NCBI GenBank assembly: GCA_001770205.1
Contig: MEQL01000035.1
Location: forward strand, 124,001 to 170,300
Length of the DNA: 46,300 bases
Direction of reading: 5' to 3'
Source of the DNA: Bdellovibrionales bacterium RIFOXYD12_FULL_39_22
GTDB lineage: Bacteria; Bdellovibrionota; Bacteriovoracia; Bacteriovoracales; Bacteriovoracaceae
Positions within the stretch are counted from its first letter, which is position 1; the number at the start of each line of letters is the position of its first letter. Shown here one piece after another: positions 1 to 12,000 of the stretch. The position numbers are program-made.

Positions 1-3000
1 TAATCTAATAATTCTAAATGCCGCCATATTGGGGATCTCGGTGGATGATACAATTCATTTGATGTACCACTATACTCAGCGCAAAAATTATTCGTCCTAC
101 GATAATCTAAAAATTACTTTAAGTGAGATATCAACGGCGCTAGTTAAAACAACTCTTTTTTTTATTCTAACCTTTCCCATTTTTTTTCTTACCTCCTTTA
201 ATTTTTTTCATGAGATGGCCCTTTTGATAATTGTTGCTTTTACAGTGGCCTTGCTTTGTGACTTGTTTGTTTTGCCAGCAACTTTACTGATTAAAGACGG
301 GGAACTGAAATAGTCGGCCTTCTGGTGGGCATTTTTATCTATACAACTAAATTATGTCCCTGAAAAAACTTTAGCTTACTTTTCTGTTTGGGCCTACTTT
401 AAAGTTAGAGTACAATTATGGAGAAATGTATTTGATAAAATATTTGGAGGATTCATGAAGATTTTTATTGTAACACTTTCTTTTTTAGCGATTAGCGCCT
501 TAGGAGTTTATACGCTGACAAGTAATAAGTATAAATTTTCCGAAGAGGGGAAGCGAGCGATTGCTTATAGCGATAAATCATCAGAGTTGGAAGTAGATGG
601 AGATCGATCGGTAATAGAGGAGATAAATGAAACAATTTTTGCAATTAGCACAGAAAAAGACATTGATAATCTAATTAAAAAAGTAGACGCAGAGTTAGCA
701 GAGCGGCCGATGGATGCCACCTTGCTTGTGTATAGCGCAATAATTTCTCCGCTAAAAGTTTTTAAGAGTTTTGGTTGGAGGGTTCTAGAGCTAGATGCGC
801 CTTTTGATTTTTGGGAAATAATGAGTGTTGCAGAACTTAGAGAGGTGGGCAAAAATTTGGATCGATGGGCCCCTCACTTTCGTCCACTATTTTACTATTT
901 GCTTCAGGGGGCGGATCATAAAAATATTTCTCAGGATCGGGCCTTCAGTGATTTTCAGAGATATTATTTGGAGACAATATATCCTGAACTGAATAAGAGT
1001 ATTCAAAAACTAAGCAAAGTGGCGGAAGGAATTGAAGATTATAACGTAGAAATTTTTGAAATGAACACTGCCCTATTTTTGGGAACTTCAAAAAATGAAA
1101 TGATAAATGAGGATTATAAGCATCTTAAATTTACCATAGAGCATGTTAATTTTTTACTTTCCAACTTTCATCGAATACAGGCCGTTTTGACTTATATTGC
1201 TTCTTATGATTTTGATGCGCTTAAAGCTTTTAGGGCATCGGTTGATGTCTACAATATGGGAAAAACTTTATTGGAAGGGACCTTTACGAATAACGATTAT
1301 AAGTTTTTACCACATGACTTTAGATATTATGAGGCCCTCCATGATGAGCGAATGAAGCATTATTTAAAAATTACCCACAAAAAAGATTTGAGCAAACTTT
1401 TTACTTTGAAAAATAATATGATTGTCAATTTGTCTCAAGAAAGAGTGCATACACTGGCCGCTTCGTTAGAGCATTTTCGACTTGCTAATAAATATAGAAT
1501 CAAGGCGGTGGATGGACTTAATATACAAAAGGATTATCCATCACCGCAAATTAAAAATCTTATCAATGCTGAAAACTATTTATCGCAAATTTGGGTTAAT
1601 AAGAAGACTTTGAAGAAAAGGGGAGAGGTGCTAAATTCAAATGGTGCCTATTCCTTTAAAGACGCTTTTTATACCTTTAGTTTTAATATAAATTTTTCTT
1701 CGTTGTTTGACCCAAAAAATCCTGCAATTTTTGATTTAAAAAAACTTATGCCAACTAAGGCCAATTTCGCTGGCCGAAATCGGACACCACTGGAGAGATT
1801 AAAAAATCAGATGGGAAAGACTGATAGTGAAAAATGGTTGATGAGTTTTGAAGATGATTCGCCAACTTCGTTGCCAGATTATAGATTCGGGCAATTATTT
1901 CCAAATGCGTCCTCGATGCAAGATTTGAAAGCGATTACTGGATCACTGGGACGAGATAATGCCCTGCCCTTTCTTAATGTTTGGTTGAGCTTATTCTTTT
2001 AGTAGTAGAAAGAGCAAGCACTGTTTTCCCCACAGGTGTTTAGTTTCTAGGAGAAATTCTATGGAGTTTGGGGCTTTTTTAATTGCACTGTTTGTTACCA
2101 TGGGGGTGAAAATCTCCGTAATTTTTACCACTCTTTTCCTTTTGTGGAAGATGATTAAGTTGCGAGTGGTTCAGAAAGAGTTGCTGGCCGAATCGGTGGC
2201 CAATCAGGAAAGCTATAAAATTTTTAATCTGCTTTTTTGGTCCTTGATTTTGTTTTTTTTCTCTGAGGTGTTTTGTGGTATTGAAACTTATATTCTGATG
2301 CGCTCTGATTATTTAGGAAGAATTACTCATTCCCTCTCCTCCAGCACTGGCCTGGCCGTTTTTTTACTGGGCCTTTTTATGCTGTTGGATAAGCATTTAA
2401 TCCGCTTTGCTAAACCTAAGTGTATGTTTATTCCTGTATGTAGGGAGTGCACACTTTTTTCAGAGAATAATTGCAAGTTTTCTAAAATGGTGATTATTTT
2501 TTTTCTTTTTGTATTATTGGCCTGCCTTCCCCCGTTTTTTGCTAGTACCGACTATATGGGAGCAGAGGTGGAAAAATTTACTCTTCCTTTTGCTGGCCTG
2601 AATAATTGGTATGATGGCACTTTGTTACCGCTGCTTCAACGTTTGAATCCTAATTATATTCCGGTGCGTAATGCTATCTATTTAGATCGAGCTCCTCAGA
2701 TTTTAGATTATCGCCTTACTCCATTAGTTGCTTTAATTTTTATTTTCACTGGACTTATTTTGTATTTGGCAAAAGATCAAAGACGTCGTACTGCGGGTAT
2801 CAATTTGGCCATATTAGGTATTGGACTGATTGGTTTTACTTATTATGAGTTGGTGTTAAATCGTGCAACCAATGATCTTTTTGTTGGTGCCGTCGGCCAT
2901 GAAATCGGCGAATTGTTGTATCTTTTATTTTTTTATCAACTACTGAAAATATTTTATATGAGGCCACCCCATGTCAAAATTTAGGGAATCTTCTTTTTTT

Positions 3001-9000: not shown

Positions 9001-12000
9001 TTCCAGAGTGGTTTGAAGTTTTAAAACGGGCCATTGATGATTTGAATGAGGGCGTTGTTGAGTATGCGATTGTGGGGGCCATTGCTGATCAGCAAAATTT
9101 TTTAGTCTCGCATCATTTACAAAGAATAAATCATGCGCTGGCGGCCAGGGCAATTGATGCTTCTTCGGTGCTAATTTTGTCGGCCGGCCAAAAACTTACC
9201 TCCTTTGGAAAGATAGAAGAGGTTTCTGTTTCCTATCGGCCTTTTGATCCTTTGGGCCAAAAAGAGTTGTTAATACAAAGCGCGGACGATTATCAGACAG
9301 ATAGTTTTACGGGAGTGGCACAGGCCTCACTGTTTTTCACGGAAGCACTGGCACGCACGGAATTAAAAATGCCACTTCGCTATTGCTGGCGTGGCGATGA
9401 GTGGAATTATTGCGCACTTACGGTGGGGCCGCCATGAATAAAAAAGTAGTTGTTACCGGAATGGGAGTAATCTCTCCGCTCGGAAATAATTTAGTTGATT
9501 TTGAAAAAGCGCTTTTTGCTGGTAAATCTGGCGTGGGGCCGATTACTCGCTTTGACCCGACGGGCCTTCCGACTACCATTGCATCAGAGGTTAAAAATAT
9601 TGCTAGTGATTTTAGGGATGTGAAAATAACCTTTGCTCTTTTGGCCGCTCAACAAGCGATTTTTGCTGCTTTTGGCCATGAGATGCTTCCTGCGAAGACT
9701 TCATCTTTTTTATCTTTGGGCATTGGCCTGGAACTTTTTTCAATGGAAGATTTAGTAGCGCTTAAATCCAAAGGCCGCGAAAATATTTCAGAAGTAGAAG
9801 ACTTAACTTTTTTAAATACACCCTCAAATATTTGTGGCCATCTTATTTCTAAAAAATATCAACTAACTCATGCTCCTGCTTTTCACATCTCCGCCTGTGC
9901 GGCCGGTACTGATGCCATTGGCCACGGCTTTTTAAAAATTGCCAGAGGAGAGGTTTTGATGGCCTTGGCCGGAGGAACGGATTCCATGATAAATCCGATG
10001 GGGGTTGGTGGGTTTTGTCGGATAGGAGCGATGACGACAAAAAATAGCACGCCTCATTTGGCATCTCGTCCCTTTGATAAATCAAGAGATGGTTTTGTTT
10101 TAGGTGAGGGAGCAGGTTTTTTAGTGTTAGAGGAAGAAGAGTTTGCACGAAAAAGAGGGGCAAAAATAGTAGGCCGAATTTTAGGATATGGAAACAGTTT
10201 GGATGCTTACAGTGTAAGTGATCCTCATCCACAGGGAGAAGGGGCGATTAAGTCGATGCATCGTGCTTTGCAGTCGGCCCATCTTTGCCCTGCAGATATT
10301 TCCGCCATTAGTGTTCATGGAACAGGAACCGCCAAAAATGATCCGGCAGAGGCGGCCGCGATTAGAACACTTTTTAAAGAAGACTATAAACGTATTCCGG
10401 CCTTTGCGACCAAGTCTATGACTGGGCATCTTATTTCTGCGGCCGGAGCTGTGGAGAGCATTGCCACGTTTTTATCTTTGCAAAGACAGCAGCTGCATCC
10501 CACCATAAATCTTCAAGAGGTTGCTGATGGCTGTGAACTCAACCATGTTATCGGGAAGAGTAAAAATTGTTCTCTAAAATACATCCTTAAAAACTCATTC
10601 GGTTTTGGTGGCCAGAATGCCTCACTGGTTTTGGCCCTCGACGAAGGGCCGCGTTTTTGTTAAACTGTTGCTTGTAAAAGGAGTTCTTATGCCCAAGATG
10701 GAGCGCGAGAAAATAGTTGAAGAGATTAAAAATATTATAGCAGATGGATTGAGTATTGATTCATCCACACTATCGCTTGGGAGTTTTTTGGTAACTGATT
10801 TGCGGGCCGATTCCTTAGATATTATGGATTTTATGTTTCAAATCCAAGAAAAATTTAATATTAACCTACAAAAAGAGGATTTTCATTTTCTGAAAAAATT
10901 AAATATGCCACAGGAACAGGCGGTGATTGATGGTTTTTTGTCAGAAGCTGCCATTTCTGCTTTAAGACATTGGCTTCCACAATTACCAGCTTCTGTTAAA
11001 CTACGGCCTGTGGATCTTGGCCAGTATCTATCTTTGGAGTCTTTAGTCATTATTGTTGAAGAAAATTTAAGCTGAATTATATGCCTTTGAGGATCAAAGC
11101 TTACTATATGCCTTCTGTAAAATCATAAAAGCCTATTTACATTTTTACAGAAGGCATATAATCTGTATTTACTATGCCGCATATCAGAAAACGTTTTCTT
11201 GAAGGTTTATTAAGGAAAACGCTCCGCTACTCTCCAATTGTTGGAATTTTTGGCCATCGCCAAGTTGGTAAAACGACGTTGGCAAATTTATTAAGCAAGC
11301 GTTATATTTCTTTAGATTCGGCATCATCACTGGCGCTCGCTTCCCAAGATGCCGCTAGTTTTTTAGAGAAAAACAAGGCAAGTCCTCTGGTTATCGACGA
11401 ATGCCAACTTGCTCCGGAACTTTTTCCTGCGTTAAAAGAACATGTGCGACAAAATCAAAGTCCAGGACAATTCTTGCTCACAGGATCGGTGCGATTTAGT
11501 TCTCGCCGAGCTATTAGAGAATCTTTGACTGGTAGAATTGTGGCCTGGGAACTGTTACCAATGGATATGAGCGAAACGTATCAAAGCACATTGCCGATAG
11601 CTCTTATTAAAATGCTAACGGCAAAAAGCGTCGATATTGATTTGCCTACCGCAAATTATTTTACTGAAAAAAACTACTTACGTTATCTCCAAAACGGTGG
11701 CCTTCCTGGTATTTTTAGTATTAGGGATTCTGCGATAAAGCGCCAGCGCTATGAGACTCAGATAAATACTATTTTAGAGCGGGACTTACAACTGATATTT
11801 CCAACAACATTAAGCTATCGAACACTCCGCCACCTTCTGGCAACTCTGGCCAGCAAAGTTGGAGAACCTCTAGAGTGGTCATCGTTGAGTCGCGCAGTGC
11901 GTATCTCTATTCCAACGCTTTATAAGCTTATTGCGGCATTTGAGGCGATGTTTCTCATTCGACTCATACCTACCGTGGGATCACAAAAAAAAGCAGTACT

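Follow-up and report, generated by a model that had tools for sequence, protein, structure and literature searches.

The sole characterised relative of the enzyme described here is the archaeal tetraether synthase (Tes or GDGT-MAS; MJ0619, PDB 7TOL/7TOM, NCBIfam NF045702), which acts on archaeol and, according to the accessible part of the report by Lloyd et al., joins two inert sp3 carbons via a cluster-sulfur intermediate (PMC9433317). Bacterial members of the same superfamily were collected by Zeng et al. in 2022 (456 proteins, including those of Koribacter, Solibacter and Sorangium, sce6491); the available text treats them as one set of brGDGT candidates, and a Sorangium entry is found among the supplementary tree labels (PMC8941075). 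Like our protein, Mss of Thermotoga and Thermoanaerobacter (Sahonero-Canavesi 2022) is a radical SAM enzyme for which action on fatty-acyl tails has been proposed or shown. A preliminary description of the locus equated Tes with Mss, an equation that we rejected, as Sahonero-Canavesi et al. call Mss only "remotely related" to Tes and report Tes homologues to be absent from Mss organisms (PMC13159169); this separation follows the authors' account.

The window, i.e., the whole stretch of 46,300 nucleotides analysed from contig MEQL01000035.1 of Bdellovibrionales bacterium RIFOXYD12_FULL_39_22, codes for a Tes-like protein (TesH) in a cluster of genes of the fatty acid synthase (FAS) type. The host is a groundwater predatory-type bacterium.

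Operon organization

The ORF listing of positions 1 to 11075 contains 11 co-directional ORFs on the + strand, at the coordinates expected from the preliminary description. Neighbouring ORFs mostly share 1 to 14 bases or abut (end/start 2984/2971, 4386/4383, 6668/6665, 8116/8116, 9437/9434). Together with the three genes directly upstream on the contig, this region is read as a single lipid-type biosynthetic operon in the best explanation given below.

The first ORF (2..313, + strand) is the C-terminal end of a 717-aa exporter of the MMPL/HAE3 RND type, the gene of which starts upstream at contig position 122160. The fragment gives weak matches to the MMPL, HAE3 and HpnN models, and the full ORF (L088:14160-16313) matches Pfam MMPL at 1.8e-11 and TIGR00921 (HAE3) with 114 bits, under the cut-off of 351.9. 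It is followed by a 515-aa protein with an N-terminal hydrophobic signal or anchor (455..2002, +) and a 307-aa polytopic membrane protein with a Cys-rich loop (2061..2984, +), both without an assigned family. The former had no match in Pfam or NCBIfam and no orthologue by phmmer across 25 clade loci, and has weak paralogues on contigs C10 and C60 of the same genome. The latter also lacked Pfam and NCBIfam matches, and the Atlas returned nothing nameable; the end of its gene overlaps the start of TesH by 14 bases, and orthologues adjoin TesH in three other loci (L013, 7.8e-54; L015, 1.3e-22; L050, 8.6e-7). Genes for IOR-alpha (455 bits) and IOR-beta (204 bits), corresponding to an IOR-type 2-oxoacid:ferredoxin oxidoreductase, are found upstream. 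The operon lacks genes for an enoyl reductase, a malonyl transferase and a PPTase. The lineage had been called anaerobic, which is not demonstrated, as the genome codes for a COX1-family oxidase (202.8 bits).

Radical SAM proteins

By sequence and modelled fold, TesH (471 aa; 2971..4386, +) truly belongs to the Tes/GDGT-MAS superfamily, over its full length, as first proposed. A repeated PDB sequence search gave the same sole match, 7tol_A, at the same E value of 6.8e-70, and identity to MJ0619 is 28-30%. The AF2 model (pTM 0.80) aligns with 7TOM at a Foldseek TMq of 0.81 over 492 columns, while the next fold reaches 0.37. Both proteins have a four-domain radical SAM architecture, with an N-terminal rubredoxin-type CX2C...CX2H site, an N-terminal cluster of CX3CX2C plus His, the RS CX3CX2C cluster and a Cys-rich C-terminal domain. 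The rubredoxin ligands C17, C20, C41 and H44 align with C9/C12/C33/H36 of GDGT-MAS; those of the [4Fe-4S]N cluster are C82, C86, C89 and H92, with C73/C77/C80 of GDGT-MAS aligned; and the RS ligands C107, C111 and C114 align with its CX3CX2C. The two CX3CX2C motifs thus begin at C82 and C107, exactly where they had been placed. The N-terminal and RS metal ligands are conserved in 24-26 of the 26 rows of the TesH clade.

The C-terminal cluster region is unlike that of true Tes, so the chemistry could differ from C-C coupling: the labile Met439 of Tes is replaced by His424, and Cys97, Cys319 and Cys441, invariant in the clade, take the places of Ala, Ser and Asp in true Tes. TesH scores 292.2 bits on NF045702 (cut-off 450) and 287.4 bits on NF045646 (cut-off 490). 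An assignment as Tes orthologue was rejected on the NF045702 score, the separate clade and the His at the Met439 position.

The next gene (4383..6668, +) codes for a 761-aa protein, described earlier as a B12-type radical SAM enzyme. Its Pfam B12-binding and Radical_SAM domains bear this out for residues ~1-440, but the protein is a two-domain fusion in which residues ~450-761 look like a condensation/PapA5/WS-DGAT-type acyltransferase with an HxxxDG motif. The closest PDB sequence is AprD4 (6fd2, 1.3e-10), and every NCBIfam B12 radical SAM model scores far under its cut-off. The acyltransferase assignment comes from the Atlas structure, with TM scores of 0.72-0.88 to Condensation, PapA_C and WS_DGAT clusters, and from the motif (H-x3-D-G invariant in all three aligned homologues); Pfam and PDB profile searches returned nothing for this domain, and a separately built model had a pLDDT of 43. 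The counterpart in genome G605 is split into adjacent genes of 453 and 332 aa.

Chain-building genes

Pfam and NCBIfam agree with the preliminary description on the domains of TesH (Zn_ribbon_HMPTM and Radical_SAM) and of the B12 enzyme, on two short-chain dehydrogenases/reductases (SDRs), the ketosynthase (KS) and a PP-binding acyl carrier protein (ACP). Of the two SDRs, both called ketoreductases, SDR1 (6665..7408, +; adh_short 163.8 bits) is a FabG-like 3-oxoacyl-ACP reductase (KR) with YxxxK, scoring 185-190 bits on FabG models, under the equivalog cut-offs. SDR2 (7412..8116, +; adh_short_C2 74 bits, residues 68-234) is divergent and lacks the catalytic Tyr and Lys of YxxxK, the alignment showing "LEFAASQ" where the L012 and L013 orthologues have Y..K; it is probably a non-catalytic or atypical partner in this genome. 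The supposed FabA (8116..8592, +; Pfam FabA-like domain 65.6 bits) is instead a FabZ-like 3-hydroxyacyl-ACP dehydratase, with 96.8 bits on TIGR01750 fabZ (cut-off 155) versus 21 on fabA.

The protein before the KS, listed as having no known family, is a degenerate KS N-terminal half of 294 aa resembling a chain-length factor (CLF; 8553..9437, +, although the actual start codon may be further downstream). Asn takes the place of the active-site Cys ("HISNN" versus "HISAC" in the KS). Its own Pfam ketoacyl-synt match is weak (0.073), that of the L013 orthologue is 1.1e-10, and orthologues occur in five clade loci. By sequence an active enzyme, the FabF-like KS (9434..10663, +; the reading frame is open from 9401, and the probable start is the ATG at 9434, which shares four bases with the preceding stop) has the N- and C-terminal ketoacyl-synt domains, scores 388 bits on TIGR03150 (cut-off 493.75) and carries ACAAG, HGTGT and GHL, which we take to be the Cys-His-His triad motifs of FabF. 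A complex model of KS and CLF-like partner gave an ipSAE of 0.95 (best control 0.00), with partner pLDDT of at least 86 and at least 90% of contacts agreeing between runs, a result that may reflect likeness to solved KS dimers. Last, the dedicated ACP (10689..11075, +; the ORF opens at 10605, likely start Met29) has a PP-binding match of 5.7e-5 and 43-49 bits on ACP models, under their cut-offs; in an alignment with three cluster ACPs, the DSLD serine is present and the C-terminal extension of ~55 aa is conserved.

Distribution and conservation of the cluster

A tree of 84 rows places the window protein in a clade of 16 rows (SH-aLRT 99) nested in the clade of 26 (99). Searching with tblastn, we found a match to the window SDR, KS or FabZ at the same locus in 22 of these 26 rows versus 2 of 54 other bacterial rows; four rows, with 6.7-10.8 kb of contig sequence, show no FAS genes, which counts against a strict linkage. 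TesH clade members occur together with KS, KR, dehydratase and ACP genes in Bdellovibrionota, Myxococcota and Acidobacteriota, and also in a Parabeggiatoa MAG (Pseudomonadota), Actinomycetota, Riflebacteria and Muiribacteriota. TesH shares 45-46% identity with Sorangium proteins. At E<=1e-40, homologues were again found in 8 of 236 other genomes of the family, from five genera; at phylum level, 3 of the 401 genomes sampled have one. The lineage had been presented as new among candidate sources of membrane-spanning lipids, in agreement with the absence of Bdellovibrionota names from those supplements of two surveys that could be searched.

In G605, transcription of the FAS genes diverges from that of TesH, the B12 enzyme and the acyltransferase, and the G688 cluster contains TesH, an MMPL-like gene, ACP, KR, KS, a CLF-like gene, FabZ, two SDRs and an acyltransferase, so gene content survives rearrangement. 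TesH has an orthologue of the B12 enzyme (43-61% identity) next to it in 9 of 19 close loci and in G605, the one genome where we found the neighbour previously reported at 61%. The IOR, MMPL, 515-aa and acyltransferase genes were not conserved over the 25 clade loci searched; the proposed starter, export and ester-transfer steps draw on the window genome and two relatives. Overall, the comparison supports the placement of TesH in a dedicated, conserved ACP-dependent lipid cluster.

Proposed function and alternative explanations

Our best explanation, with a probability of about 0.5, is that the operon makes a radical-tailored, exported envelope lipid. The KS/CLF pair would assemble an acyl chain on the dedicated ACP, possibly from a starter supplied by the IOR-type oxidoreductase, and the B12 enzyme would alter an unactivated carbon. 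TesH, using a 5'-deoxyadenosyl radical and its C-terminal Fe-S cluster, would then make a new C-C bond at one or more unactivated alkyl carbons, either joining two chains tail-to-tail or closing a ring within one. The acyltransferase domain would offload the product by esterifying a hydroxyl acceptor with it, and the MMPL protein would carry it into the envelope. A bola-type (membrane-spanning) diacid is a possible product.

The preliminary description predicted membrane-spanning lipids of the diabolic-acid or brGDGT type. Its basis in superfamily membership and a dedicated lipid cluster stands, but this product is one possibility and not the expected outcome, because TesH is not a Tes orthologue and the link between bacterial Tes homologues and membrane-spanning lipids is putative (PMC11868695, PMC13274423) and weak. 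TesH would here join two membrane fatty acyl chains by their tails, on phospholipids like archaeal Tes, with the FAS genes merely supplying chains. The characterised relative joins lipid tails and also binds ester phospholipids (available parts of PMC9433317 and PMC13274423), in TesH the fold is complete and three of the four metal sites are retained, and the accessible text of Zeng et al. proposes this role for bacterial homologues (PMC8941075). However, the close linkage of TesH to a KS/CLF pair with its own dedicated ACP, to an acyltransferase of the Pap type and to an MMPL protein fits a specialised exported lipid rather than bulk phospholipid remodelling, and searches of the genome (94.6% complete) found neither an HGD-D domain (as noted before) nor a Ger/PlsA gene. 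The clade does occur in Pyrinomonadaceae, a cultured member of which makes iso-diabolic acid (Table S21), but Pyrinomonas methylaliphatogenes is listed there without a Tes homologue under the authors' criteria. Of 14 acidobacteria that produce iso-diabolic acid, no more than 3 carry a Tes homologue, and Sporomusa has one without making such a lipid (PMC13159169; Table S21). Two Pyrinomonadaceae genomes, G556 and G557, each code for a FAS-linked copy and for two further, stand-alone paralogues, which the tree places with true Tes (4 rows, SH-aLRT 100), so the FAS-linked copy probably does something other than the stand-alone proteins. We consider this explanation unlikely.

We are doubtful, too, that TesH performs other radical chemistry on an ACP-bound chain (sulfur insertion or thioether formation, methylation-like alkylation, desaturation) to give a monomeric exported fatty acid or polyketide-like metabolite. 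The His at the Met439 position and the three extra invariant Cys would suit it, as would an equal score on the TrsS model, of a family without known function, and the C-S intermediate of Tes (PMC9433317, accessible part). Type II PKS-like systems and the ladderane cluster typically have such a KS/CLF architecture (PMC10139942, accessible part), and some distant relatives of TesH carry fusions to AMP-binding ligases or IspD/HD domains, which means that the superfamily is not confined to membrane lipids. Nevertheless, nothing positive favours any specific alternative reaction, and TesH matches GDGT-MAS along its whole length, in its overall fold (TM 0.81) and in the two lipid-sized domains. That TesH is a housekeeping or cofactor enzyme, e.g., a pterin methyltransferase, and adjoins the FAS-like cluster by chance seems very improbable. 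This would explain the JGI label "7,8-dihydro-6-hydroxymethylpterin dimethyltransferase" on some homologues and relative G617 (same family, TesH 39%), which has no FAS genes within 9 kb. Yet the association in 22 of 26 rows spans at least six phyla despite rearranged gene order, TesH overlaps its neighbours on both sides, its patchy occurrence is ill-suited to housekeeping, and Lloyd et al. report having been unable to corroborate the pterin role (PMC9433317). The evidence points to an envelope lipid that is tailored by radical chemistry and has not been described before; it does not prove membrane-spanning lipids.

Comparison with known systems

TesH also differs from Tes in that two true archaeal Tes score 623-629 bits on the model that gives TesH 292 and fall in another clade, and in that TesH is bacterial and embedded in an ACP/KS operon. 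The FAS-linked clade and operon are not described in the text passages or searchable supplements of Zeng et al. (PMC8941075). The putative ladderane FASII cluster of anammox bacteria combines amxACP, amxFabZ, a KS-CLF-like FabF/FabF2 pair and a B12 radical SAM enzyme of TIGR04072 (PMC10139942), and its product chemistry, like that of our locus, is putative (PMC10139942; bioRxiv 10.64898/2026.05.19.726425). The window B12 enzyme, in contrast, reaches 77 bits on TIGR04072 (cut-off 360); our locus has no phytoene-dehydrogenase-like gene but has, in addition, a Tes-like enzyme, a Pap-type acyltransferase and an MMPL protein; and the Tes-like protein of Kuenenia (L036) belongs to another clade than TesH. 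In the mycobacterial PapA5/MmpL7 system, a condensation-fold O-acyltransferase offloads a carrier-bound acyl chain, and an MMPL exporter is coded in the same locus. The window likewise pairs a predicted condensation-fold acyltransferase with an MMPL exporter, but here the likeness lies in predicted fold (TM 0.72-0.79 to PapA_C clusters) and HxxxDG only, with no sequence-level match, and in the window this domain forms one protein with a B12 radical SAM enzyme.

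Operon organization

The predicted proteins show the window operon to be a conserved and self-contained operon of lipid type, based on a carrier protein and including two radical SAM enzymes. Eleven co-directional plus-strand ORFs run from position 2 to 11075, at coordinates that agree with the preliminary description, and most of their stop/start pairs overlap or abut (2984/2971, 4386/4383, 6668/6665, 7408/7412, 8116/8116, and 9437/9434). By Pfam and NCBIfam, the gene order starts with the last part of an MMPL/HAE3 exporter and two proteins that match no family; then come a 471-aa protein with Zn_ribbon_HMPTM and Radical_SAM domains (TesH, 2971..4386) and a 761-aa protein with B12-binding and Radical_SAM domains (4383..6668). 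It continues with two SDRs (SDR1, 6665..7408, and SDR2, 7412..8116), a dehydratase with a FabA-like domain, another protein without a family (294 aa, 8553..9437), a FabF-like ketosynthase (KS), and an ACP. The MMPL gene is complete on the host contig region, where it codes for 717 aa, and 5' of it lie two further co-directional genes, one for a TPP enzyme resembling IOR-alpha (455 bits; cut-off, 651) and one for a subunit resembling IOR-beta (204 bits; cut-off, 222), so the operon may start at contig position 119901.

A promoter scan returned 34 promoter-like sites, where 31.1 ± 5.8 would be expected, and a terminator scan gave none that was clear 3' of the ACP gene. The DNA of the stretch is present in 11 listed sequencing runs, all groundwater and soil metagenomes, several of which may be its source, and none an RNA run. 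Positions 11174-12775 hold an AAA_14/DUF4143 ATPase gene immediately 3' of the ACP gene and then a 97-aa MIP (aquaporin) fragment, which looks truncated because it covers only profile positions 10 to 105 of 222. Farther along are two neighboring ORFs (875 and 870 aa) with no Pfam match at E<=1e-8 (23522-28808) and, on the minus strand (34564-36788), a 403-aa serine-palmitoyltransferase-like gene (496.7 bits on NF047600; cut-off, 640) adjoining a 336-aa NAD-dependent epimerase/3-beta-HSD-family reductase. These two genes, about 24 kb away from the operon, may form a sphingolipid-type module.

Assembly-line proteins

The KS carries ACAAG, HGTGT, and GHL, which we take to be the Cys-His-His active-site motifs of these enzymes, while the 294-aa protein preceding it has Asn at the Cys position. 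No Pfam or NCBIfam family covers the latter, listed earlier as an unknown, but its ortholog in a myxobacterial locus (L013) matches ketoacyl-synt at 1.1e-10 and a complex model pairs it with the KS. In that model the ipSAE is 0.95, compared with 0.00 for the best control, partner pLDDT is at least 86, and at least 90% of the contacts agree between runs; the ipSAE mark is passed by 116 of 157 solved complexes and by 2 of 215 mismatched pairs. The motifs and the model support a putative KS/CLF-type heterodimer, with the caveat that the high score may stem from resemblance to KS dimers of solved structure.

The two SDRs had been described as ketoreductases (KRs), which fits SDR1, as it retains YxxxK, but not SDR2, which has F...Q instead of the catalytic Tyr/Lys; the SDR2 orthologs in L012 and L013 keep Y...K. 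The dehydratase, formerly called FabA, scores as FabZ-like (96.8 bits against 21 for FabA). The ACP ends in a conserved tail of about 55 residues.

No Pfam family matches the C-terminal 310 residues of the 761-aa protein, which contain an H-x3-D-G motif (SHEKYDG) that is invariant in all three homologs. The Atlas model of the protein has TM scores of 0.72 to 0.88 to Condensation, PapA_C, and WS_DGAT clusters; our own AF2 model of the C-terminal domain, built on a three-row alignment, is of too low quality for a fold search (pLDDT 43.2). A PDB profile search with this acyltransferase-like domain gave only a chance match (E 1.2). On TIGR04072, the model for ladderane-type lipid B12 radical SAM proteins, the 761-aa protein scores 77.4 bits, below the 360-bit cut-off.

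Related genes occur elsewhere in the host genome. A free-standing paralog of the acyltransferase-like domain (C39:251658-252647) is 31% identical over residues 439 to 758 of the 761-aa protein. On contig C12, a second radical-SAM/FAS-like cluster (L119:6845-13550) comprises genes for a 610-aa B12-rSAM, a FabZ-like protein, a 360-aa protein of unknown kind, a KS that scores 238 bits on fabF, and a KR resembling FabG; three genes whose products match no family come next. Contig C57 (L120:5485-11971) has a SPASM-like radical SAM gene and then four tandem B12-binding radical SAM paralogs of about 445 aa, which are 30 to 32% identical to the B12 domain of the window.

TesH and the Tes superfamily

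TesH has a single match in a PDB sequence search, 7tol_A, at the E value of 6.8e-70 reported before. We mapped its metal ligands through the 7tol_A sequence alignment and the ligands named in the accessible part of the work on archaeal tetraether synthase (Tes, also GDGT-MAS; PMC9433317). The rubredoxin-type site C9/C12/C33/H36 of Tes corresponds to C17/C20/C41/H44 of TesH, the N-terminal [4Fe-4S] CX3CX2C plus His (C73/C77/C80 and His) to C82/C86/C89/H92, and the RS CX3CX2C motif to C107/C111/C114, all of these TesH ligands being invariant across groups. An AF2 model built on 16 homologs (pLDDT 74.3; pTM 0.80) matches 7TOM with a TMq of 0.81 and 7TOL with 0.80 (Foldseek E 2.1e-36; TMt 0.76), and the next-best fold reaches 0.37. 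Given the single match, the kept ligands, and the fold of the model, sequence and predicted structure together make membership of the Tes/GDGT-MAS superfamily secure, and the previous view of TesH as a full-length homolog is upheld.

Orthology with Tes, judged from sequence, is not secure. TesH scores 292.2 bits on NF045702 (Tes/GDGT-MAS; curated cut-off, 450) and 287.4 bits on NF045646 (TrsS; cut-off, 490), and none of the 47 scanned TesH-related locus proteins reaches either cut-off; archaeal Tes controls, from the archaeal genomes behind loci L030 and L033, score 629 and 623 bits on NF045702. The labile Met439 of the GDGT-MAS C-terminal cluster corresponds to His424 of TesH, with His in all 26 rows of the TesH clade and Met in both true Tes. 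As the M439A variant of GDGT-MAS is still active (PMC9433317, accessible part), His424 is a difference and does not disqualify a likeness to Tes. Cys97, Cys319, and Cys441 are invariant in the TesH clade, while true Tes has Ala, Ser, and Asp there.

A KR-TesH fusion suspected in locus L008 was discarded, as the SDR matches lie in another frame and the long ORF has only the Zn ribbon and Radical_SAM by Pfam. Longer forms of the superfamily were found among proteins P0127, P0131, P0128, and P0125: fusions of a Tes-like protein with an AMP-binding ligase (27 to 28% identity), a Tes-like, HD, and IspD-type fusion, and, in Planctomycetota, a tandem Tes-like protein of 1087 aa (45% identity).

Distribution and phylogeny

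At least 2048 relatives of TesH at E<=1e-10 were present among 8000 candidates scored from a public protein collection. The nearest (58 to 65% identity) are Bdellovibrionota and Bacteriovoracaceae MAG proteins, followed by Sorangium and Polyangiales proteins (45 to 47%). TesH occurs in 8 of 236 other genomes of the family, in 5 genera, the same count as obtained previously, and in 3 of the 401 genomes, host included, of an even phylum sample. The lineage had been taken as anaerobic; the host genome codes for a COX1-family haem-copper oxidase subunit (C61:19432-20766, 202.8 bits), so that lifestyle is not established.

We fetched 80 TesH-related loci by alignment query and computed a quick 84-row tree in IQ-TREE, with two archaeal Tes rows as the root, SH-aLRT support only, and relatives that are not independent. 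Locus L023, cut by a contig end, was left out, as were Mss, the bacterial membrane-spanning lipid synthase, and TrsS, the latter because none of 151 genomes searched in the phylum of the myxobacterial MAG G403 has a bona fide TrsS at or above the cut-off; TrsS appears in a table listing in the available part of PMC13188914. TesH and two Bdellovibrionota rows form a group (96) within a 16-row clade (99) that also has Myxococcota, Acidobacteriota (Pyrinomonadaceae and others), and a Parabeggiatoa MAG. The enclosing 26-row clade (99) also takes in Actinomycetota, Riflebacteria, Muiribacteriota, Fibrobacterota, and a betaproteobacterium. Across the quick trees with the two Tes rows as root, TesH falls outside true Tes, in a bacterial clade of 26 to 27 rows (96 to 99).

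Two Pyrinomonadaceae genomes (G556 and G557) have three Tes-like paralogs each, the FAS-linked copy scoring about 260 bits on the Tes model and the two others 316 to 323 bits. One of these higher-scoring copies was checked (they include L121:5855-7891) and has unrelated neighbors (VWA, SurE, and PCMT). Since the two higher-scoring copies of G556 join true archaeal Tes (4 rows, SH-aLRT 100), the FAS-linked clade is, on the tree, a distinct paralog and not the bacterial counterpart of Tes.

Conserved gene neighborhood

Scored by tblastn of the proteins of the window against all loci, which favors clusters resembling that of the window, an SDR, KS, or FabZ match accompanies 22 of the 26 TesH-clade rows and only 2 of 54 other bacterial rows, in both about 5 kb off on the opposite strand. 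The four clade rows lacking such a match are on contigs of 6.7 to 10.8 kb. By Pfam, five long loci share KR, TesH, KS, a weak KS-like protein, a FabZ-like protein, and ACP, often with a 440-aa B12-rSAM and sometimes with an enoyl reductase. Within the family of the host, the gene content persists despite rearrangement: G605 has ACP-KR-KS-CLF-like-FabZ-SDR2-SDR1 divergent from TesH-B12rSAM (61% identity)-acyltransferase-like, and in G688 the FAS set is clustered with TesH, an MMPL-like gene, and an acyltransferase-like gene.

The phmmer searches did not find the IOR genes, the 515-aa protein, or the acyltransferase-like domain in 25 clade loci, and they placed the 307-aa membrane protein (2061..2984) next to TesH in three other lineages; an Atlas search gave this protein no nameable family. 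In G403, contig C309 (L013, 41572-46063) has three tandem TesH paralogs ahead of a KR-FabZ-CLF-KS-ACP set, with a nitroreductase-domain ORF between KS and ACP.

Proposed pathway and alternatives

We propose that KS/CLF, KR, and DH would assemble a chain on the dedicated ACP and that the B12 enzyme would tailor this chain next. TesH would then make a C-C bond at an unactivated carbon, by dimerization or ring closure, the Pap-like domain would move the chain to a hydroxyl acceptor, and the MMPL protein would export the product. We give the whole scheme a probability of about one-half.

The preliminary description predicted membrane-spanning lipid synthesis at the phospholipid level, a reading we hold to be unlikely. 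It has on its side the Tes-type fold and metal sites of TesH; its equation of Tes with bacterial Mss does not hold, as the two are only remotely related according to the available portion of PMC13159169. Its statement that no Ger/PlsA homolog exists was confirmed, with no PF06050 (HGD-D) match for this ether-lipid route in the host genome (94.6% complete). Other radical chemistry giving a monomeric product is about as unlikely; the residues peculiar to the clade, His424 and the three cysteines, speak for it, and the match to the GDGT-MAS fold over the whole protein speaks against it. That TesH works without a functional tie to its neighbors is highly improbable. In its favor, the 39% identical TesH of G617 lacks FAS genes in the surrounding 9 kb; against it stand the 22 rows with FAS-type neighbors.

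A bolder and rather improbable extension of our scheme is that the FAS-linked clade constitutes a Mss-independent route to bipolar lipids, with C-C coupling on the assembly line and not in the membrane. Two short carrier-bound starters, which could be branched acyl units supplied by the IOR-type oxidoreductase, would be joined tail-to-tail, and KS/CLF would extend both ends to a long alpha,omega-diacid of iso-diabolic type, with mid-chain methyl groups added by the B12 enzyme. If so, a missing source of brGDGT-type cores would lie in the operon as carried by Pyrinomonadaceae and other Acidobacteriota, with Bdellovibrionota, Myxococcota, and others as unrecognized producers.

Bacterial Tes relatives have been listed since 2022 as candidates for the synthesis of brGDGTs, which are widely used as paleoclimate proxies. 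As the window shows, these relatives are more than one family, one clade being tied to a carrier-protein assembly line of its own, along with a second radical enzyme, a putative acyl-transfer step, and an exporter. As the FAS-linked clade coexists with stand-alone Tes-like paralogs within single acidobacterial genomes, surveys that count every "Tes homolog" as tetraether potential would over-call. Coming to about 11 to 15 kb, the compact operon is a practical handle that could be expressed as a unit to learn the fatty-acyl radical chemistry of the clade.

Comparison with known systems

Membership in the aryl-polyene/flexirubin group was rejected, with SDR1 at 152 bits on FlxB (cut-off, 340) and no matches to ApeI/ApeP/ApeO-type models, and so was a cispentacin-type cluster, with all AmcE/AmcF matches below cut-off (38.5 of 140 and 217.8 of 325 bits). 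Among the open-access papers and bioRxiv preprints searched, we found no description of a Tes-like/FASII operon. In the accessible portion of their study, Zeng et al. (PMC8941075) report 456 bacterial Tes homologs and propose a role in brGDGT synthesis; the readable supplement files include the label Sorangium sce6491 and no Bdellovibrio-type names. Sahonero-Canavesi et al. reached Mss by a different route (PMC13159169), and the available sections of that study describe no Tes homolog in diabolic-acid producers and one in only 3 of 14 iso-diabolic-acid-producing acidobacteria (Table S21). Later papers too, as far as their available text goes, call bacterial Tes homologs unconfirmed (PMC11868695; PMC13274423). 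Beyond ladderanes and jawsamycin, hardly any case is known in which a radical SAM enzyme modifies a ketoacyl-type lipid, according to the accessible text of a 2026 review (PMC13459092). The nearest architectural analog of the window operon, from the available portions of the ladderane literature, is the putative ladderane cluster, in which FabZ, a KS/CLF-like pair, and a B12-rSAM accompany a dedicated ACP (PMC10139942; PMC13459092).
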